NCBI GenBank assembly: GCA_964582615.1
Contig: CAZORP010000002.1
Coordinates: 38,865 to 102,864 of the forward strand
Source: an uncultured Gammaproteobacteria bacterium
GTDB lineage: Bacteria > Patescibacteriota > Patescibacteriia > UBA9934
Length of the DNA stretch: 64,000 nucleotides
Reading direction: 5' to 3'
Positions within the stretch are counted from its first letter, which is position 1. Each line of letters begins with the position of its first letter. The translations under genes were made by a program, and so were the position numbers. Below the pieces are notes generated by a model. That model ran no database searches. It was given only the letters and a program-made list of their open reading frames with translations, and was not told where the DNA came from. This document shows positions 6,176-64,000 of this stretch, in pieces.

Positions 6176-6514
6176 ATGCTCACAACCGCCATCATTCTTT
6201 TTGGGGGACTTTTTGGCCTTGCGTTTCTTGGGGCACGTTTTCATGTTGTGCCTATCGCGCATTCGGCAATCTTCATAGCACTCGCTCTTTGCGGAATTGT
6301 CATCACATTTTCTCTCGCGCAAAAAAAATCTCGCACCATCCTTCCCAAGCAAAAATCATTCAATCCCATGGAAAAAAAATCCCAATCCCAATCCCAATCC
6401 CAATCCCAATCCCAATCCCAATCCCAGTCCGACGACCACGATCCATACCTCACCGATCTACTTGCACGCTTTGCGCGGCACCACGAATCTCAAGAAATCA
6501 AAAAAGAAGGTTAG
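6176..6514 (+). CDS. Small two-pass membrane protein with a C-terminal (SQ)8 repeat
   Basis: ATG at 6176 is in frame with the long ORF whose 5' part overlaps the tRNA. Translation MLTTAIILFGGLFGLAFLG...KKSQSQSQSQSQSQSQSDDHDPYLTDLL. Confidence 0.4.
   Translation: MLTTAIILFGGLFGLAFLGARFHVVPIAHSAIFIALALCGIVITFSLAQKKSRTILPKQKSFNPMEKKSQSQSQSQSQSQSQSQSDDHDPYLTDLLARFARHHESQEIKKEG
6378..6425 (+). repeat. Perfect hexanucleotide microsatellite (AATCCC/CCCAAT) x8 inside a coding region
   Basis: Direct read: aatcccaatcccaatccc..., 48 nt, encodes SQSQSQ. Confidence 0.95.
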
Positions 6515-22954: not shown

Positions 22955-24088
22955 GTGAAATTTTCCTGTACAAAAGATAACTTCCACATCGGTCTTGCAC
23001 TTACAGGTCATTTAGGTGCAAAAAATGCCAACCTCCCGGTTCTTAACAATATCCTTCTCCAAGCAGAAGTTGGTGGAGTTCGTCTTACGGCAACAAACCT
23101 TGATATTACGGTCTCATGCACAATGCGAGCCAAGGTTGATCAAGCGGGATCCTACACACTTCCCGCAAAGCTTCTTACTGAATACGTTGGCCTTCTTCCG
23201 GATGACCGTGTAGATGTAGATCTGCTTGATACTTCCGTTTCTCTTCGTTCAGCGGGTTCGCGAACAAAAATGCACGGCCTTTCTGCGGCTGAATTTCCTG
23301 CAATTCCTCGAGTAAGTGGAGGTACGGTATATACCGTTGCAGCACAAAAATTTGACGAAGCTCTTGGGCAAACGCTTTTTGCAGTTTCAACAAGTGAAGC
23401 TCGACAGATTCTCACAGGAGCCTTTTTGCATTTTCACGGAGATACAAAGACGGTAACCGTCGCCGCTACGGATAGTTATCGCCTTGGCGAAAAGAGCGCC
23501 CCGCTTGTCAGTGAAACACTTGGTGAGCGAAAGGTTGTCGTTCCCGCTCGAACACTTTCTGAAGTTCGAAGAATTCTCAGTGTGCTTCGTGGAAGTTCTG
23601 AACCCGTTGAGACGATTGATGTTGAACTTACGGAAAATCAAATAGCATTTCGTTGTGGAACGGTTGAACTTTCTTCAAGAACAATTGATGGCGTCTATCC
23701 AGACTATCGTCAAATTATTCCAAAGACATTTACCACGGAGCTTGTTGTTGAGAGGGGTGCGCTGATTCAGGCGGTAAAGCGTACGGCGCTTTTTGCGAAA
23801 AATGGACTCTTTGATGTTCGCTTTGAAGTGGTTCCTGATGAGAAAATTCTTCGTCTTACAGCAAATGATGTTGGTCGTGGAGAAAATGAAGTGACTATTC
23901 CCGCGGAGATTGTGGGAAATGCAAACGCGGTGACACTCAATTTCCGTTATCTCCTTGATGGTGCGCTGGCAATTGGTTCAGAATCTTTGCGTATAAAGAT
24001 GATCGATGCAATGAATCCTTGTATTCTTCTTCCGCAGGGTCAGGAAAAGGCTGAGTACTTCTATATCGTCATGCCAATTCGACAGTAG
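22955..24088 (+). CDS. dnaN: DNA polymerase III beta sliding clamp
   Basis: 377 aa with the three-domain clamp pattern; MKFSCTKDNF N-terminus. Confidence 0.9.
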   Translation: MKFSCTKDNFHIGLALTGHLGAKNANLPVLNNILLQAEVGGVRLTATNLDITVSCTMRAKVDQAGSYTLPAKLLTEYVGLLPDDRVDVDLLDTSVSLRSAGSRTKMHGLSAAEFPAIPRVSGGTVYTVAAQKFDEALGQTLFAVSTSEARQILTGAFLHFHGDTKTVTVAATDSYRLGEKSAPLVSETLGERKVVVPARTLSEVRRILSVLRGSSEPVETIDVELTENQIAFRCGTVELSSRTIDGVYPDYRQIIPKTFTTELVVERGALIQAVKRTALFAKNGLFDVRFEVVPDEKILRLTANDVGRGENEVTIPAEIVGNANAVTLNFRYLLDGALAIGSESLRIKMIDAMNPCILLPQGQEKAEYFYIVMPIRQ

Positions 24089-35687: not shown

Positions 35688-35777
<90 letters not shown>

Positions 35778-35796
35778 GGACAGTGTTTTATCAAGA

Positions 35797-35880
35797 AACT
35801 CACGTGCGTTTCGTGCACGTGAGGCGTCTCTAGAGCCTTGTCCTAAACAAAACAACCCTTTGCGGGGTTGTTTTGTTGTA
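35797..35880 (+). terminator. Two strong hairpins downstream of tRNA-Ser
   Basis: CTCACGTGC-gtttcgt-GCACGTGAG, then AACAAAACAACCC-ctttgc-GGGGTTGTTTTGTT. Confidence 0.4.
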
Positions 35881-35981
35881 TTGGAAGGTGCTTTACAGAA
35901 CAGAGGGTGACGGATATGGCGGCTGGATATGCCTATGGCGTATATCGGTACTTTCTATTTGCTATACTTTTATAAAATAGT

Positions 35982-38900
35982 ATGCAGGAAAAAGAGAGAA
36001 GTTCGAAAAGATTTGAAGTCAAGCTTGGTCTTCAAGAGGTTGCTGAAAATGAGGAAGAGCAAAAGCTCAAAATAGACGGCTTAGTTGATGCGTTATTTTT
36101 AGCCATAGAAAAAAATGACCCCTATTTCCAGACATCGTTTGCACGATCGGAAATGACACACATAATGAATGGACTATTTTCCCCTCGAGATCGGGAGTAT
36201 TTTCTTGTTGGTGTTCTTAAAAAAAATCCTGAGCTTGCGTTGGGTTTTGGAAAATTTTTTCAAGAGTCCGAATCGATTGTATTGAAATATTTATGTGATG
36301 AAAATCTTGATGAATCGACAAGGTTGAGAATTTCTGAAGCGGCAATCGGGGCCTTTGATGTTATACATAACATACGTCTTTTAGAGGCTATCGAGAAACA
36401 GCTTTCATTTGAAAGTTTGTGGAGATTTAGGAAAAAATTTGGATATAGCGACGAATCTTTTGTGAGAATGCATGGAGTTATTAGTTTTATTAGGAATAGA
36501 TTTTTTTCTGATATTCCTTCTTGGCTAAGAGAGGAAATAAAACGCAAATCTCTAGAGGTTATTGTCTATTCAGATGAGTTTATATTTTGGGAGATCATGG
36601 ACAATCTAGAAAATATCGGAATTTCTCACGATGAAATTTACGATAAATTCGCTTCAAAGGGAAAGCTTCATGTACTTGCCCCCTATGTAAAACTCTTCTC
36701 AAGAGAAAAGCATGAGGGCATCCTTGAGTCATGTCTTAAACACGATAAACATTCTCTTAATAAATATTGGCAAAATTTTTATATTCATGATTTAAGAAAA
36801 TTTCTTAAAAGAGTTCTTGATTTAGACTGTGAGATTTTTGGATTTGATGCGCGTAGCTTCTCTTCGTTCTTCAGTCGGCGCCAAGAATTTTTTCACGAAG
36901 AAGAGTCTCATGCGGAAGGTTATTCGCATGATCTTCAAGGTGAATATGAGGCTTGTATAAATTTTTTTATAGAAAGCTCCTTGCCAAAAGAATTCTTTGA
37001 ATTTTGCAAACTTCAAAAAATTCACATCCAAGAAGATTGGATTAAAAGAATTGCAGAAAAATATAAGGGGGATTTATTCATTATCCAAAATCTTCCCATG
37101 TTGCGACATATTAGAAAACTTCCAGAGATTTCTTCTTTGTCAATTCATGAATTTTTAGATTCGTATTTTCGCTATAATCTTGGCGAAGCACCGATTGTAG
37201 AGATCTTCTTAAGAAGACATGATTTTCCAGAATTAGTCACTAATGAAACATTTCTCGCATACTTTGGTAATACGAAATTCTTTTGGAAGAATTTTGAAGC
37301 GCTTGATATTCCAAATAAAGAAAAATTTTTACGAGTATCATACATAAGCGATGCCTTACTAGAACATTTTGAAGCTTTGAATGAGCCTACGAAGAAAATT
37401 CTCGTTCGCAATCTTCTAGATGAATGTTTGCATCACCAAGGCCTGATTAATATCGAGAATTTTTTTCAAAATGAAGAAAAAAGAAAATACCTCAGCGACA
37501 AGGATATTGTTGATGTTATTTTCGGCAACGATACTCGTTTTTACTGGAGCCAAGATTTTCTTCAAGATTTATTGATGAGTCGAAGGAACTCAAAAGAACT
37601 TGCGCAGAAGATTCTTGAAGGTAATCTTTCTGAAGGTCGTCAAGAAGAAGAGTGGAATGCTTACACTATTAATTTTATACTGACAAATTTTGAGGTAAAA
37701 ATACATGATAAGCCTTTTCTTTTTTGTAAAGAAAATATTGGTAATTTCTTTTCAAAAAAAACCTATCATGCAGTTAAAGATATTTTTCTTGGAAAAAAAG
37801 ATTCAGAAGCTTGCGCGGATTTCTGTATCACCGAAAGCGGTGATAAAGCACTTCTACAACTTCGAAAAAAAATTCAAGAGATGAAGTTGCGAATGTATAA
37901 TCCAAATTTTCTTGATAAAGACCTTTTTGAAAATAATGTCTATCTTGAAATTTTTAAAAATGCGGTAAGATTTTCTGAGGCACAATTTCATGGCGATAAT
38001 CCCACGATTCATAGAATTATTTCAAATTTTTACAATGCAGAATCTTTAGGTGAAGTGAAGTCCCTTGATCCCTATTATCAATACAATTTATCAGAGAAGG
38101 TAGAAAGGCTTCGTACTGTTAAAGTTGAAGATTTTTCTGATGGTTCACGAGTTCGGTATGGGTATCTCAAAAGTCGCATTATGGCGGCGGGTGAATTAGC
38201 AAAAAGGAGTGATATTTTTTCTTTTTCAGTGAAAAAAATTGAAGAAAAAATTTCTCATGAAATCAAGCGTCTCAACGATCTTCTTGAAAAACTAAAAAAC
38301 CCCATCGCTCGTGAGAATGTTTTTAAAAAAATTCTAGATTTACAGAATATCAAGCTAAGAAGTTTGGAAAGTTTTCAGGAAAATTTTCACAAGATCTGTT
38401 CTGAAAATATTGCCAATGACGATGTTCTTGAAATGCTTTTTGCGTATGCGCTTCGGAAAGTGCCAGACAACCAATCTCCGCTCATCGCTTTGCGAGGATC
38501 CAAGAGTCCTAGCATCGAGGATATGAGTCGAGTTGTTGAGTTCTGCGAACATGTTGTTGTTGATATGGTTTGGAAGAGATTTTTTACTCAAAAAGAGTAT
38601 AGAAAAACACTTTTTGGCATAGCTAATTGCAATGCACTCACAGACGAGATTGTTCGTTCGCAAAATGCCGAGTCGAGGGGTTTTATCGATATGGAATTCT
38701 TTGCTACGAGAGGGATTCTTATGGAGTTTTCTGGTCACTTCTCCGATGCATGTTGGGCTGGAAAATATGGTAGCATCGCCAAAAATTTTCCTAACATGTT
38801 TACGTCAGTTTTTGTACAAAATAAAGGAACGAAGTACGAGCGTATAGTCGGATGTTCAATGTTTATTGAAACGGTTGCCGTTGATGGGACTCCGCTTCTT

Positions 38901-39296
38901 GTTATACGAGGACTAAATCCTTTAGAGAATGTTATTAACCACCTTTCAGCAAGGAGTTTTTTCACGGCATTTATAAAATATGCAAACGAACTCGCTCAAA
39001 GATCGGGAAGGGTCTTGGCTATTGTTATTGATGATCATTGTGGAGGATCGTCTACAAATAGACCTGTCATGTATGAGCTTCTTGCGAGTTTGCGAAGTTC
39101 GCTTGAGAAGGTGACGCTCAAATCGCCTCAAGATACCACGTTTAATGGTTATAACATTGTTAACGAAACATATTTTGTTTCAGAGGAACTCCTAGGGGAT
39201 CAAAATGACTATTCTTATGGTAGAGAATTTCCTGGATTTGGGAAAATGAAGGAGATTTTTCCTAAAGATTTTTCTCTAAAACCTCAAGCTCGTTAA
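35982..39296 (+). CDS. Large (1104 aa) orphan cytoplasmic protein rich in K/E/F/N/L/I, probably alpha-helical; no recognisable family
   Basis: Single uninterrupted ORF, A+T-richer than the neighbouring genes, no signal peptide. The C-terminal third carries Cys/His motifs (SDACWAGKYG, VIDDHCGG). Confidence 0.6.
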   Translation: MQEKERSSKRFEVKLGLQEVAENEEEQKLKIDGLVDALFLAIEKNDPYFQTSFARSEMTHIMNGLFSPRDREYFLVGVLKKNPELALGFGKFFQESESIVLKYLCDENLDESTRLRISEAAIGAFDVIHNIRLLEAIEKQLSFESLWRFRKKFGYSDESFVRMHGVISFIRNRFFSDIPSWLREEIKRKSLEVIVYSDEFIFWEIMDNLENIGISHDEIYDKFASKGKLHVLAPYVKLFSREKHEGILESCLKHDKHSLNKYWQNFYIHDLRKFLKRVLDLDCEIFGFDARSFSSFFSRRQEFFHEEESHAEGYSHDLQGEYEACINFFIESSLPKEFFEFCKLQKIHIQEDWIKRIAEKYKGDLFIIQNLPMLRHIRKLPEISSLSIHEFLDSYFRYNLGEAPIVEIFLRRHDFPELVTNETFLAYFGNTKFFWKNFEALDIPNKEKFLRVSYISDALLEHFEALNEPTKKILVRNLLDECLHHQGLINIENFFQNEEKRKYLSDKDIVDVIFGNDTRFYWSQDFLQDLLMSRRNSKELAQKILEGNLSEGRQEEEWNAYTINFILTNFEVKIHDKPFLFCKENIGNFFSKKTYHAVKDIFLGKKDSEACADFCITESGDKALLQLRKKIQEMKLRMYNPNFLDKDLFENNVYLEIFKNAVRFSEAQFHGDNPTIHRIISNFYNAESLGEVKSLDPYYQYNLSEKVERLRTVKVEDFSDGSRVRYGYLKSRIMAAGELAKRSDIFSFSVKKIEEKISHEIKRLNDLLEKLKNPIARENVFKKILDLQNIKLRSLESFQENFHKICSENIANDDVLEMLFAYALRKVPDNQSPLIALRGSKSPSIEDMSRVVEFCEHVVVDMVWKRFFTQKEYRKTLFGIANCNALTDEIVRSQNAESRGFIDMEFFATRGILMEFSGHFSDACWAGKYGSIAKNFPNMFTSVFVQNKGTKYERIVGCSMFIETVAVDGTPLLVIRGLNPLENVINHLSARSFFTAFIKYANELAQRSGRVLAIVIDDHCGGSSTNRPVMYELLASLRSSLEKVTLKSPQDTTFNGYNIVNETYFVSEELLGDQNDYSYGREFPGFGKMKEIFPKDFSLKPQAR

Positions 39297-40080: not shown

Positions 40081-41520
40081 TTACCAGGTTGCTACAAGGC
40101 TATTTCCCCAAAGCGTGGCACCTTTTCTTGTGGCAAAAGTTCCTTGATCGCGAAGCTCTCCGGTAAGTCCTTGCATGATACGATACTTTGTTCCACAACC
40201 AATAAGTACATAAGACGTCGCCTGTATGGGGGTCGCTACACACGCGCCAAGGTTTTGCGGCATGGCATTGTAGCGAAATACCGATGTATCGCGATAGTGT
40301 ACAAGAATGGAGCCTTGATACATAGAAAATCCTACAATCGCTGTACTGGTTTTTGGATCTTCGAGAGAATATAGGGGATGAAGGCCATTTTCTTGGAGAG
40401 TATTCCACTCATCAGATCTTGCATCGCCATCATTGTCGCTTCCATCTCCTGAAAGTTCAATTTTTGCCGTATCGTAAAGATCGCTACTATTGGTTACGTA
40501 GCCTTGCGGAGGTGTGTTTTGGCAAAACGATCCCGATTGAAGAAGGTTTCCATAGCCGTCACCGTCACCATCCCTATAGTAGGTGACATTTGTTGCAATG
40601 GTGGCGTCGTTATCGTTGCAGTCATACGTCGCTGACACACCGTCCCCATCGGCATCAACAGGTGCAACGCATGGTGTGGGAAAATCTTTATACGTAAAAA
40701 TATGACCAGCGTCATCTGCAATGGTAACGGTTGAGAGTTCGGTGGTGCAATCGGTGACTACGGCGATACCTTCTTGGTCTGAAGACGGCATAGTGTATTC
40801 GGCGACTTCGTTTCCTCCCGTTGGGGAATATTCTTGAAGCATGTCCCAGCTGTCGTACACGCTGAAAATGCTTTGTGTATCAGGGTTGTAGTCAATCCCT
40901 GCGACATCAGTGTAATCCACTGAGGTCACGATGCCGCCTTTTGCGGTTACACCACCCTGAGCGTCGGGAATAAACGCATAGAGATTGCCATCATTTTGCC
41001 ACCCACAAAGAAAAATTCCTCCCATGGGAGTTGTACCAAAAGCATGCTGTCCATCGGGGATCCACTCAAGTCCCTCAATGCCAAGGTTATTTGCATAAGA
41101 GAGATATGGACTTATATCCCACGTGGTTCCAGAGATCGTTTCGGTTGTAAGTGAAAATGCATGAATGACGTTGGTATTTTCATCGACAAGATAGACGGCA
41201 TCACCCGTGCGTTCGGGAATAGCGACTCCCTCAAGATTGAGTCCGGTATTCCAAATATGCTCTAAGGATCCGGTTTCGGTTATTTCCGCAAGATTTCCTC
41301 CGTCATCAGCAACGAAAAACGTTTGACGGTCTTTGTGCCAACTTATGCCGCTTGGTTCAAATCCACTGTCGTAAGCGAGAATATCCTGCGATATGTCGGT
41401 TCCTGAAGTGTCCCACGTTGGCCAAGCTGATGGACTTATGGCTTGTGCGTGAAGCGTAGGAAGTAATGTGCAGAGTGTCAGCAAGAAAGATGTCACTCGT
41501 GAAAAATGAGAGATATGCAT
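40081..41520 (-). CDS. Secreted protein: predicted beta-propeller (SdiA-regulated/phytase-like) N-domain plus Asp/Gly-rich Cys-containing metal-binding-like repeats
   Basis: Signal peptide MHISHFSRVTSFLLTLCTLLPTLHAQA; DADGDGVSATYDCNDND and YYRDGDGDGYG motifs. Confidence 0.55.
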   Translation of the reverse strand: MHISHFSRVTSFLLTLCTLLPTLHAQAISPSAWPTWDTSGTDISQDILAYDSGFEPSGISWHKDRQTFFVADDGGNLAEITETGSLEHIWNTGLNLEGVAIPERTGDAVYLVDENTNVIHAFSLTTETISGTTWDISPYLSYANNLGIEGLEWIPDGQHAFGTTPMGGIFLCGWQNDGNLYAFIPDAQGGVTAKGGIVTSVDYTDVAGIDYNPDTQSIFSVYDSWDMLQEYSPTGGNEVAEYTMPSSDQEGIAVVTDCTTELSTVTIADDAGHIFTYKDFPTPCVAPVDADGDGVSATYDCNDNDATIATNVTYYRDGDGDGYGNLLQSGSFCQNTPPQGYVTNSSDLYDTAKIELSGDGSDNDGDARSDEWNTLQENGLHPLYSLEDPKTSTAIVGFSMYQGSILVHYRDTSVFRYNAMPQNLGACVATPIQATSYVLIGCGTKYRIMQGLTGELRDQGTFATRKGATLWGNSLVATW

Positions 41521-41597: not shown

Positions 41598-42482
41598 ATG
41601 CGTATTCGTAAAGCAATTATTCCCGTTGCAGGCATGGGCACGCGATTTCTTCCCGCAACAAAAGCTCAGCCAAAAGAAATGCTGACCGTCGTTGATAAGC
41701 CGGTTATTCAATACATTGTAGAGGAGGCGGTTTCTGCGGGTATCGAAGAAATTATTTTTGTTACAGCACTTGGAAAGCGTGCGATTGAAGATCATTTTGA
41801 TAGAAATTTTGAATTAGAATTTCGCCTCGAGCAGAAGCAGAAGCTCCGCGAGTTAGAAGGCATTCAAGCCATCGGAAAGCTTGCTAAGTTTGCATTTGTT
41901 CGTCAGCAAACTCCCATGGGCGATGGTCACGCGCTTTTGGCGGCACATCCTTTCATAGGAAAGGATGAGGCTGTTGCAGTACTTTTTGGTGATGACATTA
42001 TCTCGGGGGAGGTTCCCGCTATCGGTGAAATGATAGAAGAGTTTGAGCGTCGTGGATCTTGTAATCCCGTGGTTGCACTTCAGGAGGTTTCTCGTGAGGA
42101 TGTTCGTCAGTACGGTATTGTTGATGGTTCTCGCGTGAGTGATGATGTTGTTGAGATTCATAAGTTCATCGAGAAACCTTCTCCCGAGGAGGCTCCGTCG
42201 TGTCTTGCGGCGGTTGGAAGATACGTGCTTACACCCGAAGTTTTTACTCGACTTCTCACGCAGTCTCCCGGAAAGGATGGAGAAATTCGTCTCGCGGATG
42301 CTTTTTCGGGACTTCTTCGCGATGGACAGCAATTGTGGGGGAGAAGATTTTCTGGAAAGCGTTACGACTGTGGGAACAAGTTGCAGTTTCTTATCGCGCA
42401 AATAGAACTCGGATGTCGCCATCCTGAACTTGGAAAAGATCTTTCCGCATACCTTAAAAACATGAGCGGTGATTGCATATGA
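41598..42482 (+). CDS. galU: UTP--glucose-1-phosphate uridylyltransferase
   Basis: KAIIPVAGMGTRFLPATKAQPKEMLTVVDKPVIQY. Confidence 0.9.
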   Translation: MRIRKAIIPVAGMGTRFLPATKAQPKEMLTVVDKPVIQYIVEEAVSAGIEEIIFVTALGKRAIEDHFDRNFELEFRLEQKQKLRELEGIQAIGKLAKFAFVRQQTPMGDGHALLAAHPFIGKDEAVAVLFGDDIISGEVPAIGEMIEEFERRGSCNPVVALQEVSREDVRQYGIVDGSRVSDDVVEIHKFIEKPSPEEAPSCLAAVGRYVLTPEVFTRLLTQSPGKDGEIRLADAFSGLLRDGQQLWGRRFSGKRYDCGNKLQFLIAQIELGCRHPELGKDLSAYLKNMSGDCI

Positions 42483-43051
42483 CATTCTGGCTCTTGTTTG
42501 CGCTTTTTTTGTCCGTTGGAATGTTTATTGCCCTCGTTGGACTTTTTCTTTTATGGGCGATGAGTATTCTTGGTTCGTGGAAAGCGCCCTACGTTCCACT
42601 GCCAAAAGAAGCGCTTCCCGGCATTGTGGAAGCATTATCCATAGATCCCGGAAATGTAGTGTATGATATAGGGTGTGGCGATGGTCGCATTCTGCGTGCT
42701 TGCGCGGAACGATCTCCTCACGCAACGTATAAGGGTATCGAGCGTGCGTGGTTTCCTTACCTCATCGCGCGCCTTCATCGATCCCATCCTTCCGTTCTTT
42801 TCGTCCGGGGTGACGCAACGCTTGCGTCATTTACAGATGCACACCGCGTTGTGCTTTATCTGCTTCCCGGGTTCGTAGACGTCATTGGTGAAAAAATCCG
42901 TAGAGAATGTGCGCCAGGAGCGCGTGTGATTTCGGTGGATTTCCCCATAGCGTCATGGGTACCGGTACAGGTCATTGAACAGCGCCACCTGCCGCAGCGT
43001 ATGCGGGGAAGACTCATGTATGTGTACATCTTGGAAAAAGATTCAGCGTAG
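42473..43051 (+). CDS. Class I SAM-dependent methyltransferase with an N-terminal transmembrane helix
   Basis: VYDIGCGDGRIL motif I. Confidence 0.7.
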   Translation: MHMTFWLLFALFLSVGMFIALVGLFLLWAMSILGSWKAPYVPLPKEALPGIVEALSIDPGNVVYDIGCGDGRILRACAERSPHATYKGIERAWFPYLIARLHRSHPSVLFVRGDATLASFTDAHRVVLYLLPGFVDVIGEKIRRECAPGARVISVDFPIASWVPVQVIEQRHLPQRMRGRLMYVYILEKDSA

Positions 43052-44429
43052 CCTTACATCCATTATTATTGGATGTTCGTTGTTTGCCACCCTGGGAGCA
43101 GGTTGTGGTCAAACCTCGCAAAAGCCAGGATCTGCCGAGAAAGTGACACTTACCTATTGGAGGGTCTTTGATGGTGATGATGCGTTCGATGAAATAGTGA
43201 GTGCCTACGAGGCATTGCATCCGTACGTTACAATCGACTATCGCGTATTGCGATACGATGAGTACGAGAGTGCGCTTCTTCGTTCTTTGGCAAAGGGTGA
43301 GGGTCCGGATATGTTCACGGTGCACAATACGCACATTGGAGAGTATCGCGATTTGCTACTTCCCATGCCTGCGTCGGTTACGGTAAAGACACTTGAAACG
43401 GTAGGAAGTTTGCGAAAAGAAACCGTCCTTTCAGAGAAAAAGACAACCATGCCTTCCTTGCGAAGTATTCGTGAGAATTTTGTGGATGTCGTTGGTCAAG
43501 ACGTGATTTTTTCGGAAACTGATGATTCGGGAAAAGAAGAAGAGCGTGTTTATGGTCTTCCTCTTGCACTTGATACACTTGCCTTGTATTACGACAAGGA
43601 TTTGTTTAATGCTGCTGGAATTGCTGAACCTCCTGCTACGTGGTCGGATGTGAGTGATGTTGTCAAAAAAATGACAACCTACGATGATAAGGGCGAGGTT
43701 GTACAGTCTGCTCTTGGTATGGGTACCGGTGAAAATGTGGAGCGATCTGCCGACATCATGCAGGTGCTCATGATGCAGAATGGAACGCACATGGTTGACG
43801 ATCGTCAGCGCGTTGCCTTCCATGAAATTCCCGATACCATTGCAGATGGTGTATATCCTGGACTTGATGCAGTCCGTTTTTATACAGACTTCGCGAATCC
43901 AGTAAAAGACACCTATACATGGAACGATACATATCCTCGTAATCTCGAAGCTTTTGCTTCAGGATCTACGGCGATGTTTTTAGGGTATAGCTATCATGCT
44001 CCGCTTATTAAAGCGTTAGCGCCGGGAAAAAATATTGGCATTGCAAAGCTTCCTCAGATTGGAAGCGGTGCTAAAGAGGTAAATATTGCAAACTATTGGG
44101 TTGAAGGCGTTTCTCGTTCAAGTAAGCATCATGATGAAGCTTGGGATTTTCTTGCATTCGCAACCAGTCAGGACCATGTTCTTTCGTATCTTCAAGAAAC
44201 ACAGAAGCCTACCGCGCTTCGCGCACTCATTGATGATCAAATTGAAGATCCTGTGCTAAATCCGTTTGTGAGTCAGGTTCTTACTTCTCAAAGCTGGTAT
44301 CACGGTAATGATGCCGATGCTATGGAGGAGGCTTTTATTCAACTTGCTGAAATGGTACTTTCGGGAAACCGCAAGGCTGAAGACGCAATACAAAATGCGG
44401 CAAAAATTGTTGCCCAGACGTATAAGTAG
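43020..44429 (+). CDS. ABC transporter extracellular solute-binding lipoprotein (carbohydrate-type); start uncertain (43020 or later)
   Basis: Lipobox LGAGCGQ, then a family-1 SBP fold (TLTYWRVFDGDD...). Confidence 0.7.
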   Translation: MCTSWKKIQRSLTSIIIGCSLFATLGAGCGQTSQKPGSAEKVTLTYWRVFDGDDAFDEIVSAYEALHPYVTIDYRVLRYDEYESALLRSLAKGEGPDMFTVHNTHIGEYRDLLLPMPASVTVKTLETVGSLRKETVLSEKKTTMPSLRSIRENFVDVVGQDVIFSETDDSGKEEERVYGLPLALDTLALYYDKDLFNAAGIAEPPATWSDVSDVVKKMTTYDDKGEVVQSALGMGTGENVERSADIMQVLMMQNGTHMVDDRQRVAFHEIPDTIADGVYPGLDAVRFYTDFANPVKDTYTWNDTYPRNLEAFASGSTAMFLGYSYHAPLIKALAPGKNIGIAKLPQIGSGAKEVNIANYWVEGVSRSSKHHDEAWDFLAFATSQDHVLSYLQETQKPTALRALIDDQIEDPVLNPFVSQVLTSQSWYHGNDADAMEEAFIQLAEMVLSGNRKAEDAIQNAAKIVAQTYK

Positions 44430-44430
44430 T

Positions 44431-44991
44431 ATGCGTACATTACCTTCAAGACTTGCAGGTTTTGCCATAGGATCGTTACTCGCCGTATCAATACATACGC
44501 CTGTTTTTGCGCAGAGCAGCTCGGGTCCTATTGAAGCGAGCTATCAGAGCATCATGAAAAGTGGGATTATTTTTGGAAATATTTGTAGTGACGCACCTCC
44601 GGTTACAGGGGCCGATTCTTGCGCATGTCGTTCTTCTGGTCAGTGCTCCCTCACCGACCTTCTTCAGGTTGCGGTGAATATTATCAACTTTATTTTAGGA
44701 ATATCGGGATCTGTAGCGCTTGTGATGTTTGTTTATGGGGGATTTCTCTGGGTTTTTGCTCAAGGAAGATCCGAGTACATAGCAGAAGGACAGGCTACGC
44801 TTAAGCATGCCATTCTTGGACTTGCGATTATTTTTGGCGCCTATGCGCTCATCGCAATGACGCTACGCATGATAGGAGGACTCGATCCTTCAGGTGCCAG
44901 CCTCGAGAGCACTATTCAAAGTCTTGATGTTGAGGAAAATGGTGCCAAGCAGCCGCTTAATACGGACGAAATTTTTCAGACCACTCAATAA
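44431..44991 (+). CDS. Pilin-like small secreted membrane protein (TrbC/VirB2-like), paralog 1
   Basis: Signal peptide MRTLPSRLAGFAIGSLLAVSIHTPVFAQ, two hydrophobic helices around VYGGFLWVFAQG, Cys-rich loop. Confidence 0.6.
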   Translation: MRTLPSRLAGFAIGSLLAVSIHTPVFAQSSSGPIEASYQSIMKSGIIFGNICSDAPPVTGADSCACRSSGQCSLTDLLQVAVNIINFILGISGSVALVMFVYGGFLWVFAQGRSEYIAEGQATLKHAILGLAIIFGAYALIAMTLRMIGGLDPSGASLESTIQSLDVEENGAKQPLNTDEIFQTTQ

Positions 44992-45000
44992 ACAAGCATT

Positions 45001-45342
45001 ATGTATATACGCAAAATTCTTTCTCCGCTCATATCAGGAGTGCTCATTCTCGCACCTCTTATAACACACGCCGAGGTGGTGTACCTTATCAATCCACTTG
45101 GAGAAACCGATCCTCGTATTTTGATTGCTCGCATTATCAAGGCAATTCTTTCAATCCTCGGATCTCTTTCTCTTCTTATGCTCGTGTATGCGGGTGTCCT
45201 TTGGATTACCGCTCAGGGTGATGCTAAGAAGGTTGAACGCGGAAAGCACATTATGACATGGGTTGTTGCAGGAATTGCGCTCATTGCTGGGTCGTATGTC
45301 ATTGTAAACGCACTCATCGCGGCATTTACGACAGCCGCATAG
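45001..45342 (+). CDS. Pilin-like protein, paralog 2
   Basis: Signal peptide plus LLMLVYAGVLWITAQGDAKKVERGK...IAGSYVIV. Confidence 0.6.
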   Translation: MYIRKILSPLISGVLILAPLITHAEVVYLINPLGETDPRILIARIIKAILSILGSLSLLMLVYAGVLWITAQGDAKKVERGKHIMTWVVAGIALIAGSYVIVNALIAAFTTAA

Positions 45343-45416
45343 AGGGCAACCTTTCCTCAGGTTTTCAACAGAAGAAAAAAAGAAAGTGGTATACTCTTGA
45401 GGTAATTCTTTTTTCT

Positions 45417-45812
45417 ATGATGAAACGTCTTTTCCGCTTTTTTGTTAGCGCCGCACTCGGCGTTGCTTGTGCGCTTCCGTTTACGCGTATCGCGGCTCCT
45501 GTTTATGCCCAGCCTCTCGAAGCTGAAGATTTTCTCAATGAAGATTTTTCTGATGCCACGGGACTTGGTCAGGCTGATCTTCAAGAAACCATTGGAAACC
45601 TTATTCGTGTTGCTTTGAGTTTCTTGGGTGTAGTTGCGGTGTGTATCGTGCTTTATGGTGGATTTAAGTGGATGACTGCGGGTGGTAATGACGAAAAGGT
45701 TGGGGAGGCAAAGCGTTTAATGATCTCTGGACTCATTGGTCTTGCAATTATCATGTCTTCTTACGCGATTGCAAGCTTTGCGATTACCTCTATTCTTGAA
45801 GCTACGGCATAA
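45417..45812 (+). CDS. Pilin-like protein, paralog 3
   Basis: MMKRLFRFFVSAALGVACALPFTRIAAPVYAQ...VLYGGFKWMTAGGNDEKVGEAK. Confidence 0.6.
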   Translation: MMKRLFRFFVSAALGVACALPFTRIAAPVYAQPLEAEDFLNEDFSDATGLGQADLQETIGNLIRVALSFLGVVAVCIVLYGGFKWMTAGGNDEKVGEAKRLMISGLIGLAIIMSSYAIASFAITSILEATA

Positions 45813-45834
45813 GCGTGCCGCATGCAGGTCATGT

Positions 45835-46203
45835 ATGTCGGTAAAATCTCTTCTTTTCTGTGTTGCCATTGCCGTGCTTACGATGCCTGCATCGGTCTAC
45901 GCACAGCTTGGAACGCAAGATACGGGACTGCAGGCTACGGTACAAAGTGGTTATGGCGTTTCGGGCACTATTATTGGTCTTCCGGAATTTATTGGAAAAT
46001 ACATCATCAATCCGATACTTGGGTTATCGGGAACGATCATCTTCTTTTTAATGGCGTGGGCAGGATTCCTCTGGATGACCGCCGCGGGAGATACCAAGCG
46101 TGTTGAAAAATCAAAGATGATCCTTTCGCAGTGTGTTGTTGGATTGGTGATTCTTGTGGGTTCCTACGCGCTGACAAATTACCTTATCACAATCTTTGCG
46201 TAA
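45835..46203 (+). CDS. Pilin-like protein, paralog 4
   Basis: MSVKSLLFCVAIAVLTMPASVYAQ...AWAGFLWMTAAGDTKRVEKSK. Confidence 0.6.
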   Translation: MSVKSLLFCVAIAVLTMPASVYAQLGTQDTGLQATVQSGYGVSGTIIGLPEFIGKYIINPILGLSGTIIFFLMAWAGFLWMTAAGDTKRVEKSKMILSQCVVGLVILVGSYALTNYLITIFA

Positions 46204-46867
46204 TATGACGTTGCTGAAGAAAGGATTCCTCGTTCTTGCCCTTACTTTTGGAATTTCTCTTGGTGGAGGGGGTATCGCGCATGGTGTTGATTTAGGGTGG
46301 GGAAATCTCAATGAATCTGCAAATGAAGCTGGTTTGAGCGGTTCGGATAGTTTGACGGATATGGTGGCCCTCGTTATCAATTCTGTTTTGAGTATTTCAG
46401 GTGCACTCCTTTTTATCTACTTCATCTACGCAGGATTCCTCTGGATGACCGCCGCGGGAGATACTAAGAATGTCGACAAAGCAAAGACCATCATGCGCAA
46501 CGCTGTTGTTGGACTGGTTGTCCTCATGGCATCGTATGCACTCGCGCTTTTTGTTGCTAAGTCGCTTGGAATTAAGACTACGAGAATGACTGAGGTTGCC
46601 AGTGGTTCTGGACTGTCAACGAATGGAGAGCTTGTTCCATTTGTTGGAGATCTTATTGCAAAGCTCGTTTCATTTGCGGGAGTCATCGTTTTTATCATCT
46701 TCATTTACGCAGGATTCCTCTGGATGACCGCCGCGGGAGATACTAAGAATGTCGACAAAGCAAAGACCATCATGCGCAACGCTGTTGTTGGACTCGTGGT
46801 GCTTTTACTCGCATATGCACTTACGGATTTCGTTGTGACACTTCTTTCACAGGCAGAGGTTACATAG
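46196..46867 (+). CDS. Pilin-like protein, paralog 5, with a tandemly duplicated pilin module
   Basis: AGFLWMTAAGDTKNVDKAKTIMRNAVVGLVVL occurs twice. Confidence 0.6.
   Translation: MRNMTLLKKGFLVLALTFGISLGGGGIAHGVDLGWGNLNESANEAGLSGSDSLTDMVALVINSVLSISGALLFIYFIYAGFLWMTAAGDTKNVDKAKTIMRNAVVGLVVLMASYALALFVAKSLGIKTTRMTEVASGSGLSTNGELVPFVGDLIAKLVSFAGVIVFIIFIYAGFLWMTAAGDTKNVDKAKTIMRNAVVGLVVLLLAYALTDFVVTLLSQAEVT
46427..46515 (+). repeat. 89-nt direct repeat, copy 1 (identical to 46706-46794)
   Basis: Exact nucleotide identity read by eye; the 279-nt spacing preserves the reading frame. Confidence 0.85.
46706..46794 (+). repeat. 89-nt direct repeat, copy 2
   Basis: Identical to 46427-46515. Confidence 0.85.
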
Positions 46868-46929
46868 TCCTATCCACAGGATCGTGAATACAGAGAAAAA
46901 CATGTTACAATATCCCTATAAAATATTTT

Positions 46930-47316
46930 ATGAAAAATTGGAAACATCTCATCGCAGGCGCAGCGCTTGCAACGGCACCTTTAGCGGCTACGGTTCCAGC
47001 TTTTGCGGTAGGCAACATTGACCTCAATGATCAGCTTTCAAATGTTAACGACAATGCTGGATTCAATGATGGTCCTCTTACCGACACACTTGGTTCGCTC
47101 ATTAATGTAGCACTTGGACTTCTTGGTATCGTCTTCCTTCTCCTTACGCTTTACGCTGGATGGCTTTGGATGACGGCGGCGGGAGATGCAAAGAATACCG
47201 AAAAAGCAAAGAATATTCTTGTTACCGCAGTTGTTGGTTTGGTTATTCTTCTCTCCGCATACGCAATCTCGTCGTTCGTTATTGAAAATGTTACCAACGC
47301 AGTTAACGGAGCGTAA
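46930..47316 (+). CDS. Pilin-like protein, paralog 6
   Basis: Signal peptide plus TLYAGWLWMTAAGDAKNTEKAKN. Confidence 0.6.
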   Translation: MKNWKHLIAGAALATAPLAATVPAFAVGNIDLNDQLSNVNDNAGFNDGPLTDTLGSLINVALGLLGIVFLLLTLYAGWLWMTAAGDAKNTEKAKNILVTAVVGLVILLSAYAISSFVIENVTNAVNGA

Positions 47317-47327
47317 TACGCGTTCAG

Positions 47328-47358
47328 TAAAAAAACTGGCATCATGCCAGTTTTTTTG
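47328..47358. terminator. Bidirectional terminator
   Basis: aaaaaaCTGGCATcATGCCAGttttttt. Confidence 0.6.
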
Positions 47359-48571
47359 TTGTTGAAGTTTGTATAGCTAGCGCAAGGAAAAAGAGTGTGA
47401 GAAAGGCAAGGTCGTTCTTAAGGAAAGGAACGTCAACGAGTCCGTGAATGAGAAGTGTGAGTATTGCAGGAGCCCATAAGGCGCTCTCAGGAAGGTCTTT
47501 TGTAAGAAATATAAGACGCACAAGCCACGCGGAGATGCAAAGAAGAGAGAGTGCTCCAAAAAGACCATACTCAACCCAAAAGTTTAGGATCCAAGTGTGG
47601 GGATATTGAAAGAGCTCATACTCCTTGGCGATGTGGTAGGGAATAAGTGCTGAGGGAAAGTTTCCTATTCCCGCACCAAGTATTGGGGCGTCACGAAGAA
47701 GGTTAATGGTCTCTCCCCATTGAGACCGTCTAACCATACCGGAGTCGTCACAAAGAAATATTTTTGCTCGGATATCTCCAAAGAGAAGACTCCCACTAAA
47801 AAGAAGAAAACCACTCAAGAGTATGAGTTGCTTGTGGCGTTGTTTTTTTGTAGACAACCAAATCCACACTGCGAGCGAAAGAATGATTGCAAGAATTCCT
47901 GCTTCGGTTTTTGCAAGCACTACGCCAAGAAACATCCAAAGGCTTGCGAGTATGAGAAGAATGCGTTCTCGTGTGATGTTGTTCCTTATCGCGAGCGCTA
48001 TTCCTGAGGCAATAAGAGGCGATAGGAAGAGTCCAAGAGCATTGGGGTAGGGAAAGATGCTTGTACTGCGTCGTTCTGCGAGCCAGGCGATAGGAAGACT
48101 TGTTCCGCTTATATATTGAAAAACTGCAAAGGCTGTTAGTACACAACCGCAGAGCATGAGTGAAAAAAGCCCATATCGACGATCTTCTTGATGTATGAGA
48201 GTTGCTCTAACAATAAAAAGAAACAGCGTCGGTTCAAGAAGATAAGCTCTCCAGAGCCCAAGTGACGAGAGAAGACTCTCTTGAGGAACAATGAGAAAAC
48301 TCGTAAAAAGAGGAATGATTATAAAAAGTAGGGTGGTACCCATTTGTCGAAGTATCTTGTTTTTTTGAGGATGCTTTGCGAGATCTATCATCCAGAAAAA
48401 TGTGAGAATAAAAAAGATTCCCTCAAGAAATGTTGTTGGAAGTGGTCCAATATTGTAGCGAATGAGGTAAGTGGGAAGTAGGCCGAGAAAAAGTAAGACT
48501 CCATCGCGAAGGCGATAAGCTGTGACAATGGCAAAGCCTAAAAGGCCAAGCACTATAAGAAGTGTCGTCAT
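47342..48571 (-). CDS. O-antigen ligase-like (Wzy_C family) polytopic membrane protein
   Basis: About 10 transmembrane helices with a central large periplasmic loop. Confidence 0.55.
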   Translation of the reverse strand: MTTLLIVLGLLGFAIVTAYRLRDGVLLFLGLLPTYLIRYNIGPLPTTFLEGIFFILTFFWMIDLAKHPQKNKILRQMGTTLLFIIIPLFTSFLIVPQESLLSSLGLWRAYLLEPTLFLFIVRATLIHQEDRRYGLFSLMLCGCVLTAFAVFQYISGTSLPIAWLAERRSTSIFPYPNALGLFLSPLIASGIALAIRNNITRERILLILASLWMFLGVVLAKTEAGILAIILSLAVWIWLSTKKQRHKQLILLSGFLLFSGSLLFGDIRAKIFLCDDSGMVRRSQWGETINLLRDAPILGAGIGNFPSALIPYHIAKEYELFQYPHTWILNFWVEYGLFGALSLLCISAWLVRLIFLTKDLPESALWAPAILTLLIHGLVDVPFLKNDLAFLTLFFLALAIQTSTTKKLA

Positions 48572-56409: not shown

Positions 56410-58809
56410 TTAAAAAGAAAAAAGATGTCGTTTATTTCTGAATACCCAGTACCCACCAGCGCCAAGAGTTCCGAGAATTCCTGATCCGCCAAGTGCGAAT
56501 GAAAAGGGAACTGAGGGTTCTTTGGCGTGAATTTCTTCAGATGGTCTTAAGGGTTGTGCCGGTGTTTGTGATAGTGATCCTGTTATTTTTGAGATTATAG
56601 GTGAATGTTCTTGTTTGGTGATTTTTTGCACATCATTAAAGGATCTTGGAAGAAGAATAAGCTTTCCATCTTCATGGCGAGATATTCCAACGATATGAAA
56701 TCGATCGCCAACGGAGAGTCCGCTAAACGCCTTTGTCTTTGCGTCATCTCTTCCAAAGAAAGTGTCACCTTCGGTGGTGAGAAATTGAAAGAGCCCATCT
56801 TCTTTTCCCTGAAGAGATCCTTCCGCAAAGAGTAATGATGATTCGTAAGATGTGATTTTTGAATCTTCCGCAATCGCCTCGGATGCGGTTTCGTGAACGA
56901 TGAAGATGTCATCTGCTGAAGTTATGACAATTCTTGGAACATCCTCCTGAAGGGTGATTTTTCCTTGAACGCGAAGTGTCATTTCTTGAGTGATTGTTGG
57001 CCATGAGGCTTTGTAAAAATATACCTGTATACCCTGAAGGTACATTGTTCGTTTTCCAAAGATTCCGGGAACCGCAAGAACATTTCCTTGGTAGCTCACA
57101 AGTTCTCCTTCGGCAAGTGAAGAAATTTCCTCGCGAAGAATTGATCGATAAGATGAAGGGATTTTTTCTTCATCACGTTGTTTCTCCTTGACTGATATTT
57201 TTGGTGATTCTTTTACTTGTGTGAAAGATATTTCCTGAACTTGAGGTGCTTCAATTAGGGATGTTTTGGTCTGAGAATGATTTGCTCCTGAAGAAGTTTC
57301 TTCAGGGGAAGGAGAAGCTCCTTGAGTGGGTGAAGGCTCGTTGATGGATTCGGTGATCGTGGTTTTGATGATTTCATACGTGGGAATCATGGGTGATTCG
57401 TTTGATTTCTCTTCTAGTGAAGAAGTTGTTTGAGTTTGTTGTGTTGTGCAAATATTTTCTCCCTCGGGAGTCGGCGTGAGCGGCATTTTCCAAGCATCAT
57501 TACAGCGTCCTGCGGAAAAGCCTTTTGGTGGTGCGGGAAAAGTTTCTGTTCCGTACGTGAGGGTAAAGAATACGGTTCCATCAATAGTTTTAAGCTGAAG
57601 AGTATCTCCGTTGTTGTTAAGTTTTCCTTTTGGATTTCTAAGAAGGAGAAGGTGATGCGCGGGAAGCATTTCTTCGATAACCGTTTGTTTTCCTGAGCCT
57701 TCTTCAAACACAACGCTTCCTGAGGGAACATCTGCATTACCGGTATTTTCTATCTCAACCCATTCATCTTCCGAGATGGGGGAGCTAAGAAATTCTTGAA
57801 TGTGCACGCCAATAAGCGAAATGATTTCTCGTGGCGACGGTGATGGTGTGGGAAGTGGGTGTGGATCATCTTCTTGCATGGGTTCTTCCGCGACTTCTTC
57901 CGATGAAGTTACTATCAAAGGTTCTGGAAGAAGAAAATCCTGCATTGACGTCACTTCCTCATCTTCAGAAGGATCTTTTTGAGGTTCTTGAACGAGTTCC
58001 TCGGTGAGATCTTCTTCGTGAGGATCTATTGCACTATCGAGAGAATCTTCTTGCGGGTCATATTCTTCGATAGTTGCTTCGGTGTCTGTAGAGGCCTCCT
58101 CCCGAGTCTCGATTTCTATAAGCGTGTCTTCTGTGGAGGGTGTAGCACTCCCCGGAACCTCATTTTCTGAGGATGAAGGCGTCTCTAAGGTGGGACTGTT
58201 ATTTGCAAGAGAAGACTCCTCAGAGATCTCGGCTTCCGCGATCAAAAAGAATTCTTCAGGTGGAGCTCCGGGTGTTCCGCACCACGCTCCATGCAAATCG
58301 TCGTAGCATTGTTGCGATGTTTTCCACGCTCCCCATTCTCCTTGCTCTGCGCTTGCGTGAGGATTTGTTCTCCCAAAACTCGGGGTTGTGTAGGTAAAGC
58401 TATCAAGAATATTTCCTTGAACATCTTTGAGCTGAAGATTTCCCTGTGTATTGGGAATACTCAAATGTGCAGTAACAAGGTTTGGCGCTACGCTAAGTAC
58501 ACTCTTAGCGTCGCCAAGATTGTAATTGGCGACAAGAAATACTTGATGTGAGTTAAGTTCGTAGGCGGGAAGTACGAGAGGATCACTTCCTGATGCGCCA
58601 GTCACAACAATGCCGTCAAGATTTATGGCGCTGTTGGTTGGATTGAAGATTTCCAACCACTCATCGGCGGTTGATAGAGGAGATCCTCCCCATGCGACTT
58701 CTGAAAAAATGAGTCGGTAGTCTTCTTTTTGGATTTCCTGCGCACGTGCAGAAAGAGCACCGAAGAAGAGCATAATGCTAAGGATTCCTGTGCGAATAAC
58801 ATAGCTCAT
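56410..58809 (-). CDS. Surface protein with two lamin-tail-domain (LTD)-like modules, a long acidic/Pro-rich linker and a C-terminal transmembrane anchor
   Basis: Signal peptide MSYVIRTGILSIMLFFGALSARAQE. LTD-like segments EVAWGGSPLSTADEWLEIFNPTNSAINLDGIVV and HIQEFLSSPISEDEWVEIENTGNADV. C-terminus GILGTLGAGGYWVFRNKR. Confidence 0.55.
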   Translation of the reverse strand: MSYVIRTGILSIMLFFGALSARAQEIQKEDYRLIFSEVAWGGSPLSTADEWLEIFNPTNSAINLDGIVVTGASGSDPLVLPAYELNSHQVFLVANYNLGDAKSVLSVAPNLVTAHLSIPNTQGNLQLKDVQGNILDSFTYTTPSFGRTNPHASAEQGEWGAWKTSQQCYDDLHGAWCGTPGAPPEEFFLIAEAEISEESSLANNSPTLETPSSSENEVPGSATPSTEDTLIEIETREEASTDTEATIEEYDPQEDSLDSAIDPHEEDLTEELVQEPQKDPSEDEEVTSMQDFLLPEPLIVTSSEEVAEEPMQEDDPHPLPTPSPSPREIISLIGVHIQEFLSSPISEDEWVEIENTGNADVPSGSVVFEEGSGKQTVIEEMLPAHHLLLLRNPKGKLNNNGDTLQLKTIDGTVFFTLTYGTETFPAPPKGFSAGRCNDAWKMPLTPTPEGENICTTQQTQTTSSLEEKSNESPMIPTYEIIKTTITESINEPSPTQGASPSPEETSSGANHSQTKTSLIEAPQVQEISFTQVKESPKISVKEKQRDEEKIPSSYRSILREEISSLAEGELVSYQGNVLAVPGIFGKRTMYLQGIQVYFYKASWPTITQEMTLRVQGKITLQEDVPRIVITSADDIFIVHETASEAIAEDSKITSYESSLLFAEGSLQGKEDGLFQFLTTEGDTFFGRDDAKTKAFSGLSVGDRFHIVGISRHEDGKLILLPRSFNDVQKITKQEHSPIISKITGSLSQTPAQPLRPSEEIHAKEPSVPFSFALGGSGILGTLGAGGYWVFRNKRHLFSF

Positions 58810-59003
58810 GGAATTAAATACAGGTGAATAAAACGACGTCGTGCAAAACAAAAACTCCCAAACATCGCAAAAATTGCGACGGGGAGTTTTGTCTGCCAAT
58901 CTACATTACCACGGTATTCTTCCGCGCATGGATGCCTGTGGAAAAGAAAAAACCGACCCCTACGTGTAAGGGTCGGTGCAGGGTGCGGCACCTATGATGG
59001 CCT

Positions 59004-61789: not shown

Positions 61790-61889
61790 CTGCCGCACAT
61801 TCACAACTTCATATCGAGACGAAATCAAATGCATAATTTGCAATTCGCCAACCCACTCGAGCACAAAAAAGTTGTGCGTAGACAGTGGG

Positions 61890-64000
<2,111 letters not shown>

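Follow-up and report, generated by a model that had tools for sequence, protein, structure and literature searches.

An array of six VirB2-like pilin genes beside a sugar-binding lipoprotein gene in an uncultured Patescibacterium

The subject of this analysis is a set of six closely spaced, co-directional pilin-like genes, here called g1 to g6, at positions 44431-47316 (+) of a 64-kb stretch of contig CAZORP010000002.1 that was analyzed over its whole length and is referred to below as the window. Profile matches assign the products to the VirB2/TrbC superfamily of pilins and, within it, to the Patescibacteria-type family PF18895 (T4SS_pilin, T4SS standing for type IV secretion system). VirB2-like pilin arrays of Patescibacteria have been published (PMC10633639, PMC12102498, PMC12857230). 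The array is therefore a further example of a known phenomenon, real and correctly read by a first-pass annotation made from the sequence, although the idea that it belongs to an uncharacterized apparatus has to be given up. Our additions are modest: a coupling to the gene for a solute-binding lipoprotein (SBP) of the sugar type, a fused double pilin and apparent internal promoters. On balance, we think it probable that the array supplies Sec-exported, membrane-stored VirB2-like subunits from which a distal T4SS of the monoderm type would build a heteromeric filament or conduit for host contact, with the SBP acting at the same interface.

The genes were delimited by reading the open reading frames (ORFs) of the window, and the coordinates (Table 1) bear out that six genes follow one another on one strand, the gaps from g1 to g6 being 9, 74, 22, 1 and 62 nt. 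Hydropathy and inspection of the sequences place a hydrophobic signal segment at the N-terminus of all six proteins, each ending in an AxA-like signal peptidase I site with predicted cleavage at VFA/Q, THA/E, VYA/Q, VYA/Q, AHG/V and AFA/V for g1 to g6, respectively. A polar segment of 10-60 residues follows in every case, and then two long hydrophobic helices with a short loop. The six products match the VirB2/TrbC architecture of a predicted Sec signal peptide, two hydrophobic helices and a short, polar, basic loop, and in the AlphaFold2 model of g6 residues 50-82 and 87-127 pair as a helical hairpin, the predicted local distance difference test score being about 90. When the paralogs are aligned, eight columns are invariant (I, G, G, W, A, G, G and Y) and a common core emerges, Y-[AG]-G-[FWV]-x-W-[MVI]-x-A-x-G-[DNR]; the domains are 22-57% identical in pairs (mean 37%), and the mature N-terminal segments vary more than the core. 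The signal peptide, mature segment and helix pair described for each protein in the first-pass annotation were all recovered. Its size range of 110-190 aa fits five of the genes and fails for g5, which has 220 aa and two complete pilin domains, and its core motif stands except for the K..K(A/S)K part, which is degenerate in g1-g3.

The family assignment was made against the curated cutoffs of three hidden Markov models (HMMs): PF18895, with a gathering cutoff of 26.6 bits; PF04956 (TrbC/VirB2), with 27.9 bits; and NF045849, with 40, which describes a pilin-like conjugal transfer protein family from the integrative and conjugative elements (ICEs) of Mycoplasma. All six proteins exceeded the PF18895 cutoff at 27.6-61.5 bits, far beyond chance, which answers the HMM check proposed at the outset, and g5 and g6 also passed NF045849. 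As a reference for hhalign we took authentic VirB2/TrbC genes, flanked by virB1 and virB3, from seven plasmids; the array profile aligned with them colinearly over 57 columns covering both helices (P 1.3e-4, probability 54%), the sequence similarity being marginal at 21% identity. The signature of type IV pilins (type IV pilus and type II secretion) was sought as well, and neither an N_methyl (PF07963) match nor a G/FxxxE motif was found in any of the six. Together with a PF04956 match of g1 at the cutoff, these results uphold the claim that the proteins are of the TrbC/VirB2 type and not PilA. True N_methyl proteins are present elsewhere in the related loci described below.

A different explanation is that these are unrelated small membrane proteins, holin-like for example, whose hydrophobic composition resembles that of pilins, or that the array is the decaying remnant of an integrated conjugative element. 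Helical hairpins do give unspecific fold matches, there are weak sub-threshold matches to holin and other membrane families, and the window contains a tyrosine recombinase gene. We regard this explanation as highly improbable and already largely refuted, because six proteins independently pass the curated PF18895 cutoff and share a non-hydrophobic motif, G-x-x-W-x-x-A-x-G-D, that goes beyond composition, while no relaxase is present, the recombinase lies 37 kb from the array and dozens of genomes have the cluster in a syntenic setting of housekeeping genes. The matches to holin, DctQ and other membrane families were rejected, all being far below their own cutoffs, and an origin from a mobile element was rejected on the grounds of the synteny.

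The fifth gene differs from the others in that it encodes two complete pilin hairpins with four transmembrane helices, seen as two PF18895 stretches that total 61.5 bits; because it carries the hairpin unit twice, the six genes encode seven pilin-type domains. The duplication is visible as an internal DNA repeat (46407-46556 against 46686-46835, 87% identity). The two halves of g5 agree letter for letter over about 90 nt, and a 35-nt core stretch is common to g4 and g5. Fused pilins at position 5 were found in four genomes, that of the window and those of three related loci (L003, 9232-9936; L093, 5241-5963; L094, 5256-5966). Among the latter three, matching halves are 60-65% identical between genomes, compared with 51-55% for the halves within one protein, which shows that the fusion is older than the sub-clade, whereas the halves of g5 in the window are 64% identical to each other, which points to recent intragenic conversion. 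VirB2-like pilins fused in tandem are not mentioned in the papers that we consulted.

Relatives of the array were collected in a genome scan that used one genome per species and a query alignment of 8 sequences; at least 573 sites were confirmed and 79 loci retrieved, the related loci being chosen by their similarity to g6. The array homologs are all PF18895 proteins from Patescibacteria, the named ones from Candidatus (Ca.) Uhrbacteria, and the fetched loci come from Uhrbacteria, Magasanikbacteria and other 'Parcubacteria'-type metagenome-assembled genomes (MAGs). The nearest relatives of the window are Ca. Uhrbacteria and Magasanikbacteria of the class ABY1, to which GTDB assigns the relatives that are listed in a published genome table. 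Judged from these relatives, the host is an ultra-small Patescibacterium; that its genome is small had been proposed at the first reading. Counting with the domain HMM, the copy-number comparison that had been called for, gave 4-14 pilin genes per array in nearly every related locus and six in the nearer relatives.

In these nearer relatives the best match of each window gene is the gene at the same position, a pattern that holds in at least 15 genomes even though the flanking SBP is just 40-62% identical to that of the window. The identities by position are given in Table 1; position 5 is the most variable, and the conservation of g3 orthologs equals that of GalU, the product of the first gene in the cluster. 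The position-1 orthologs (n=14) keep four Cys residues, C..C-x-C-R-x2-G-x-C, ahead of helix 1, as well as the C-terminal tail. Such strict positional orthology in the face of SBP divergence indicates old subunits that are not interchangeable, rather than a recent amplification or antigenically varying cassettes, and so argues for specialized subunits. The opposing view, that the multiplicity serves mainly antigenic or host-range variation among interchangeable surface variants, has been suggested in the literature, as for the VirB2 copies of Bartonella and Anaplasma, and the low identity of the paralogs (22-57%), the greater variability of their mature N-terminal segments and local conversion tracts between g4 and the two halves of g5 all agree with it. 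We nevertheless consider it quite improbable, given the fixed gene order and the conservation specific to each position (at g1 the tail and the Cys motif, at g3 an identity of 54-83%), and every copy is a complete gene with a signal peptide, so that there are no silent cassettes. Of the antigenic or functional diversification first proposed for the paralogs, the antigenic kind is disfavored by the positional orthologs and the functional kind fits better.

Two of the intergenic gaps hold promoter-like sequences. Alignment of relatives shows conserved boxes of the extended -10-like form TGnTAtAcT ahead of genes 3 and 6: a box like TGGTATACT is present in the g2-g3 gap of 9 of the 10 relatives aligned, and boxes like TGTTACAAT, which precedes g6, also occur in relatives. 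In 23 six-gene arrays, -10-like hexamers were counted in the 90 nt that follow the stop codon of the preceding gene; position 3 had one in 13/23 and position 6 in 11/23, compared with 0-3/23 at the other positions and a background of 0.05 per interval searched. A sigma-70/terminator scanner reported promoter-like sites in no excess and did not call the terminator that follows g6, and both the boxes and this terminator were found by sequence reading and comparison. The terminator candidate, an A-run, hairpin and T-run, is probably bidirectional and would separate g6 from the convergent Wzy gene. The signals suggest three transcription units, galU-SBP-g1-g2, g3-g4-g5 and g6. As g3 and g6 are the most conserved paralogs and each follows a conserved -10-like box, they are likely to be the bulk subunits.

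The gene directly upstream of the array encodes the SBP, whose relatives in the PDB are sugar-binding proteins (for example 4qrz and 5ci5) and whose stop codon lies 1 nt before the start codon of g1. In 51 related array loci an SBP homolog immediately precedes the array on the same strand, typically at a spacing of -4 to +30 nt, and 54 loci have one anywhere in the examined stretch, most of the remaining ones being contigs that start inside the array; in 46 related loci a galU homolog lies upstream of the SBP gene. As similarity to g6 was the basis on which loci were selected, this coupling is stated for the present clade only. Clustering of the neighboring ORFs and a Pfam scan revealed no ABC (ATP-binding cassette) permease recurring within +-10 kb of the arrays. 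The main text of the survey in PMC12102498, which analyzed virB4 neighborhoods alone, does not mention solute-binding proteins, and the coupling is apparently a new detail that we did not find described in the literature. It suggests that SBP, GalU and the array are linked in this lineage by co-transcription or translational coupling and that the filament would work with a glycan-binding surface protein at host contact. The same galU-SBP-pilin cluster of the Patescibacteria type occurs in many third-party MAGs titled 'uncultured Gammaproteobacteria bacterium' (L007, L009-L012 and others) and in single MAG records titled Kapaibacterium or Acutalibacteraceae; these titles are unreliable for taxonomy.

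The absence of VirB4, VirB6 and VirD4 from the window, noted at the first reading, was confirmed by Pfam scans, a Walker-A filter and phmmer. The neighbor search clustered large and mid-size ORFs, scanned the representatives against Pfam and applied the Walker-A filter and phmmer, and it turned up none of the three genes near the arrays. In the window, the ORFs of at least 400 aa with a Walker-A motif are DnaA, a ComM-like ATPase and an ABC exporter only. With phmmer, the pCF10 proteins PrgJ, PcfC, PrgH, PrgI, PrgK and PrgL, which are the equivalents of VirB4, VirD4, VirB6, VirB3, VirB1 and VirB8, had no match in the window or the related loci. The usual context of a VirB2/TrbC-type system, with VirB4 and mating-pair-formation (MPF) genes alongside, is thus lacking at the array. 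The survey of PMC12102498 records VirB4 in 2417 of 3035 Patescibacteria assemblies, with VirB2-like pilins in 1948 VirB4-positive assemblies and near virB4 in 1135. Among seven named ABY1 assemblies that have array loci, six are VirB4-positive in its Table S1, and in the same seven no VirB4 was found in the examined stretch around the array, which indicates that the ATPase exists in the clade and is encoded elsewhere.

Several results weigh against an array that feeds a distant T4SS. Neither the 64-kb window nor the +-10 kb around 81 related loci yielded a T4SS machinery gene, and VirB4 is presumed for the window's own genome only by proxy, from its relatives. The promoter calls are consensus matches alone. 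The PF04956 match is just at threshold for g1 (27.9 bits, exactly the cutoff, E 2.9e-6) and below it for the other genes (14.8 bits for g2 and 17.0 for g4, with g3, g5 and g6 not listed). A Foldseek search of the PDB with the AlphaFold2 model of g6 gave no match at E <= 0.001, only generic helical hairpins, and a profile search of PDB sequences gave no pilin match, only spurious ones to designer proteins; both searches are uninformative because the proteins are bare hairpins, as expected. To our knowledge, a filament has never been seen for any PF18895 protein.

These points leave some room for an envelope module independent of a T4SS, in which the two-helix proteins would form a hetero-oligomeric membrane complex of 14 helices that acts with the SBP, for instance in docking to or uptake of host glycans, and no pilus is made. 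Such a module would account for the SBP gene lying directly upstream in 51 loci and 1 nt away in the window, for the failure of both an ABC permease and VirB4 to recur near the arrays, and for the one related array-bearing assembly that is listed without VirB4. We judge it unlikely, since no SBP-dependent transporter built of two-helix subunits only is known, homologous arrays in Saccharibacteria lie inside a T4SS cluster and VirB4 is recorded in 6/7 related assemblies; in addition, SBP_bac_1 proteins normally serve ABC importers, whose genes could be elsewhere. A further reading, only slightly less unlikely, takes the GalU-SBP-pilin cluster as a distinct, order-conserved surface module in Patescibacteria of the ABY1 type, genetically uncoupled from T4SS genes, in which the SBP would be the dedicated partner of a heteromeric filament, maybe even without VirB4. 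The SBP may in that case be a glycan-recognizing adhesin or tip, or a receptor for host-derived material. If true, an ABC-type binding protein would have taken on a new role, and the module would be a new class of pilin-based host-contact device.

The reading that we prefer, in which a distal T4SS assembles the array products, starts from what was observed here, namely family membership, architecture, positional orthology, the coupling to the SBP and the lack of machinery genes nearby. Judging from their sequences, the products would be exported by Sec, cut by signal peptidase I and held as a helical hairpin in the cytoplasmic membrane, its two termini facing outward and the basic GD-K..K loop facing inward. 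Homology and the literature suggest that a VirB4-powered T4SS of an MPF-FATA-like kind, encoded elsewhere on the chromosome, would extract and polymerize the subunits into a surface filament or conduit. Cultivated Saccharibacteria cannot grow epibiotically without this system. The six paralogs would be ancient, order-conserved and individually specialized rather than interchangeable, with g3 and g6 as the likely bulk subunits and g1 (with its Cys-rich, tip-like extension and C-terminal tail), g2, g4 and the fused g5 as likely minor or adaptor subunits. Processing, polymerization, VirB4 dependence and the roles of individual paralogs are the parts of this scheme that we infer.

Among known systems, the nearest likeness is to the VirB2 arrays of other Patescibacteria. 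Wang et al. 2023 (PMC10633639) described six PF18895 pilins of Ca. Southlakia epibionticum, SEML1_0014-0019, within a T4SS cluster that includes VirB4, PrgI and VirB6, and found the pilins and the T4SS cluster all essential for epibiotic growth. Quinonero-Coronel et al. 2025 (PMC12102498) reported 441 arrays of 2-11 pilin genes with a mean identity of 25% and a maximum of 54%, defining an array as at least two pilin genes in tandem or one gene apart with low mutual identity, and a 2025 review gives the same picture. By that definition the window holds an array, with six adjacent genes at 22-57% identity (mean 37%). It resembles the published arrays in its PF18895 matches (with or without PF04956), its tandem same-strand genes of low copy identity, its Patescibacteria host and its chromosomal position fairly near the replication origin, and it has six genes, as in Southlakia. 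It differs in that it does not adjoin virB4, prgI or virB6, is coupled to GalU and the sugar-binding lipoprotein, and has one fused double pilin; moreover, the survey arrays are mostly from Microgenomatia and Saccharimonadia, whereas this one, judged from its relatives, belongs to the class ABY1. With VirB2 of Agrobacterium and TrbC of RP4 (PF04956) the proteins share the signal peptide, the pair of hydrophobic helices with its short polar loop, and a length of roughly 70-100 residues after cleavage, but the array is without the adjacent virB1, virB3 and virB4 that the fetched plasmid loci have, its host is monoderm, and it has many paralogs in place of one major pilin. Through NF045849, g5 and g6 also resemble the pilin-like protein Mbov_0395/MMCAP2_0565 of Mycoplasma ICEs. 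In the T4SSs of Bartonella and Anaplasma, which are host-associated as well, VirB2 likewise occurs as several divergent tandem copies; these have been interpreted as variants that serve antigenic or host-range change, whereas the orthology of the window array argues for fixed, specialized roles.

A possible link to Gram-positive systems came from PrgF of the Enterococcus pCF10 T4SS (L092, 9546-9773), a 75-residue two-helix protein that, unlike the array proteins, lacks both a cleavable signal peptide and an N-terminal extension. A phmmer search of 5,945 ORFs with PrgF gave 45 matches, all of them PF18895 pilins (best E 1e-4) and many of them position-3 orthologs, with no window gene matched individually. 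PrgF falls below every Pfam pilin cutoff and reaches P 0.011 in hhalign; being below threshold in both, it was dropped as a formal homolog and kept as a lead only. The matches hint that a relative of VirB2-like proteins may exist in monoderm T4SSs after all.

Proteins of another size also carry the pilin domain. In at least 14 loci (L019-L022, L029, L037, L044, L053, L054, L064, L065, L074, L077 and L078), a protein of about 600-720 aa that contains a Big_5 Ig-like domain has a PF18895 domain close to its N-terminus, mostly near position 10000 of the locus, and an adjoining giant protein of 2,250-3,460 aa bears a PF18895 domain as well. Genes for signal peptidase S26 and LytR_cpsA_psr recur nearby. 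Both kinds of protein look like giant surface proteins that are pilin-anchored.

Table 1. Features of the window, with the identity of same-position orthologs to each window gene
Feature	Position	Strand	Description	Ortholog identity
Tyrosine recombinase gene	6511-7470			
dnaA	21157-22608			
dnaN	22955-24088			
1104-aa ORF	35982-39296		Within region 35688-39296; no Pfam/NCBIfam match, no obvious signal peptide	
Secreted protein (predicted)	40081-41520	-	479 aa; weak SdiA-regulated (propeller-like) match; Asp-rich DxDxDG-like repeats	
galU	41598-42482	+	UTP-glucose-1-phosphate uridylyltransferase; TIGR01099 327.4 bits (cutoff 326.8), PF00483; first gene of conserved cluster	
Methyltransferase gene	42473-43051	+	N-terminal membrane anchor; weak Methyltransf_25 match; between galU and SBP gene	
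SBP gene	43020-44429	+	Solute-binding lipoprotein, sugar/oligosaccharide SBP_bac_1 type; PF01547, PF13416; lipobox LGAGC	
g1	44431-44991	+	186 aa; pilin-like; Cys-rich N-terminal segment, hydrophilic C-terminal tail; PF18895 33.3 bits, PF04956 27.9 bits	35-49%
g2	45001-45342	+	113 aa; shortest pilin-like protein; PF18895 31.7 bits	41-63%
Box TGGTATACT	45387-45395	+	Extended -10-like box in g2-g3 gap; consensus-level match only	
g3	45417-45812	+	131 aa; top-conserved paralog, candidate major subunit; PF18895 35.1 bits	54-83% (closer relatives), 50-63% (more distant)
g4	45835-46203	+	122 aa; pilin-like protein; PF18895 27.6 bits	37-56%
g5	46205-46867	+	220 aa from ATG, 223 aa from TTG at 46196; tandem double pilin; PF18895 61.5 bits	
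g6	46930-47316	+	128 aa; second in conservation; PF18895 36.6 bits, NF045849 43.7 bits	43-67%
Box TGTTACAAT	46903-46911	+	Extended -10-like box before g6; consensus-level match only	
A-run/hairpin/T-run	47325-47361		Between g6 and convergent Wzy gene; 17-bp stem, -17.8 kcal/mol, z-score -4.46	
Secreted protein (predicted)	56410-58899	-	829 aa; lamin-tail domain	
23S rRNA gene	61886-64000		5' two thirds only, to window end	

The surroundings of the array are those of ordinary chromosome, with housekeeping genes that include PolA, PNPase, a class A penicillin-binding protein, RuvB, trigger factor and seven tRNAs. Both dnaA and dnaN lie where the GC skew changes sign (at about 23 kb), which places the replication origin inside the window, with the array about 22 kb away on the leading strand. 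Downstream of the array are convergent Wzy and Wzx genes and a gene with a SpoIID domain, so that all the envelope-gene neighbors named in the first-pass annotation, the sugar-type SBP included, were recovered. The methyltransferase gene between galU and the SBP gene has orthologs in the closest relatives only (present in L003, L004, L007 and L008, absent from L009, L010 and L013), and its product has weak similarity to an archaeal protein-lysine N-methyltransferase (54.9 bits against a cutoff of 200). The 23S rRNA gene at the end of the window has protein-coding ORFs directly upstream and no 16S rRNA gene in the preceding 61 kb, which means that the rRNA genes are unlinked here. Directly after tRNA-Ser(cga) comes the region of the 1104-aa ORF, with a GC content of 0.34-0.38 against about 0.46 around it; this ORF looks like a horizontally acquired gene. 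Two further genes for predicted secreted proteins are listed in Table 1.

The Patescibacteria are a very large, mostly uncultured radiation whose members depend on host cells, and in the single lineage tested genetically the T4SS and its pilin array are essential for host-dependent life. The window adds an environmental ABY1 array to this picture and leaves the picture itself unchanged. What it refines is the view of the array: the paralogs appear to be fixed, specialized subunits, g3 and g6 seem to be separately promoted and may be the bulk subunits, and the partner to which this clade ties the array is a sugar-binding lipoprotein and not the secretion ATPase. These refinements narrow the choice of proteins to express, to model or to seek by cryo-electron tomography in enrichments.

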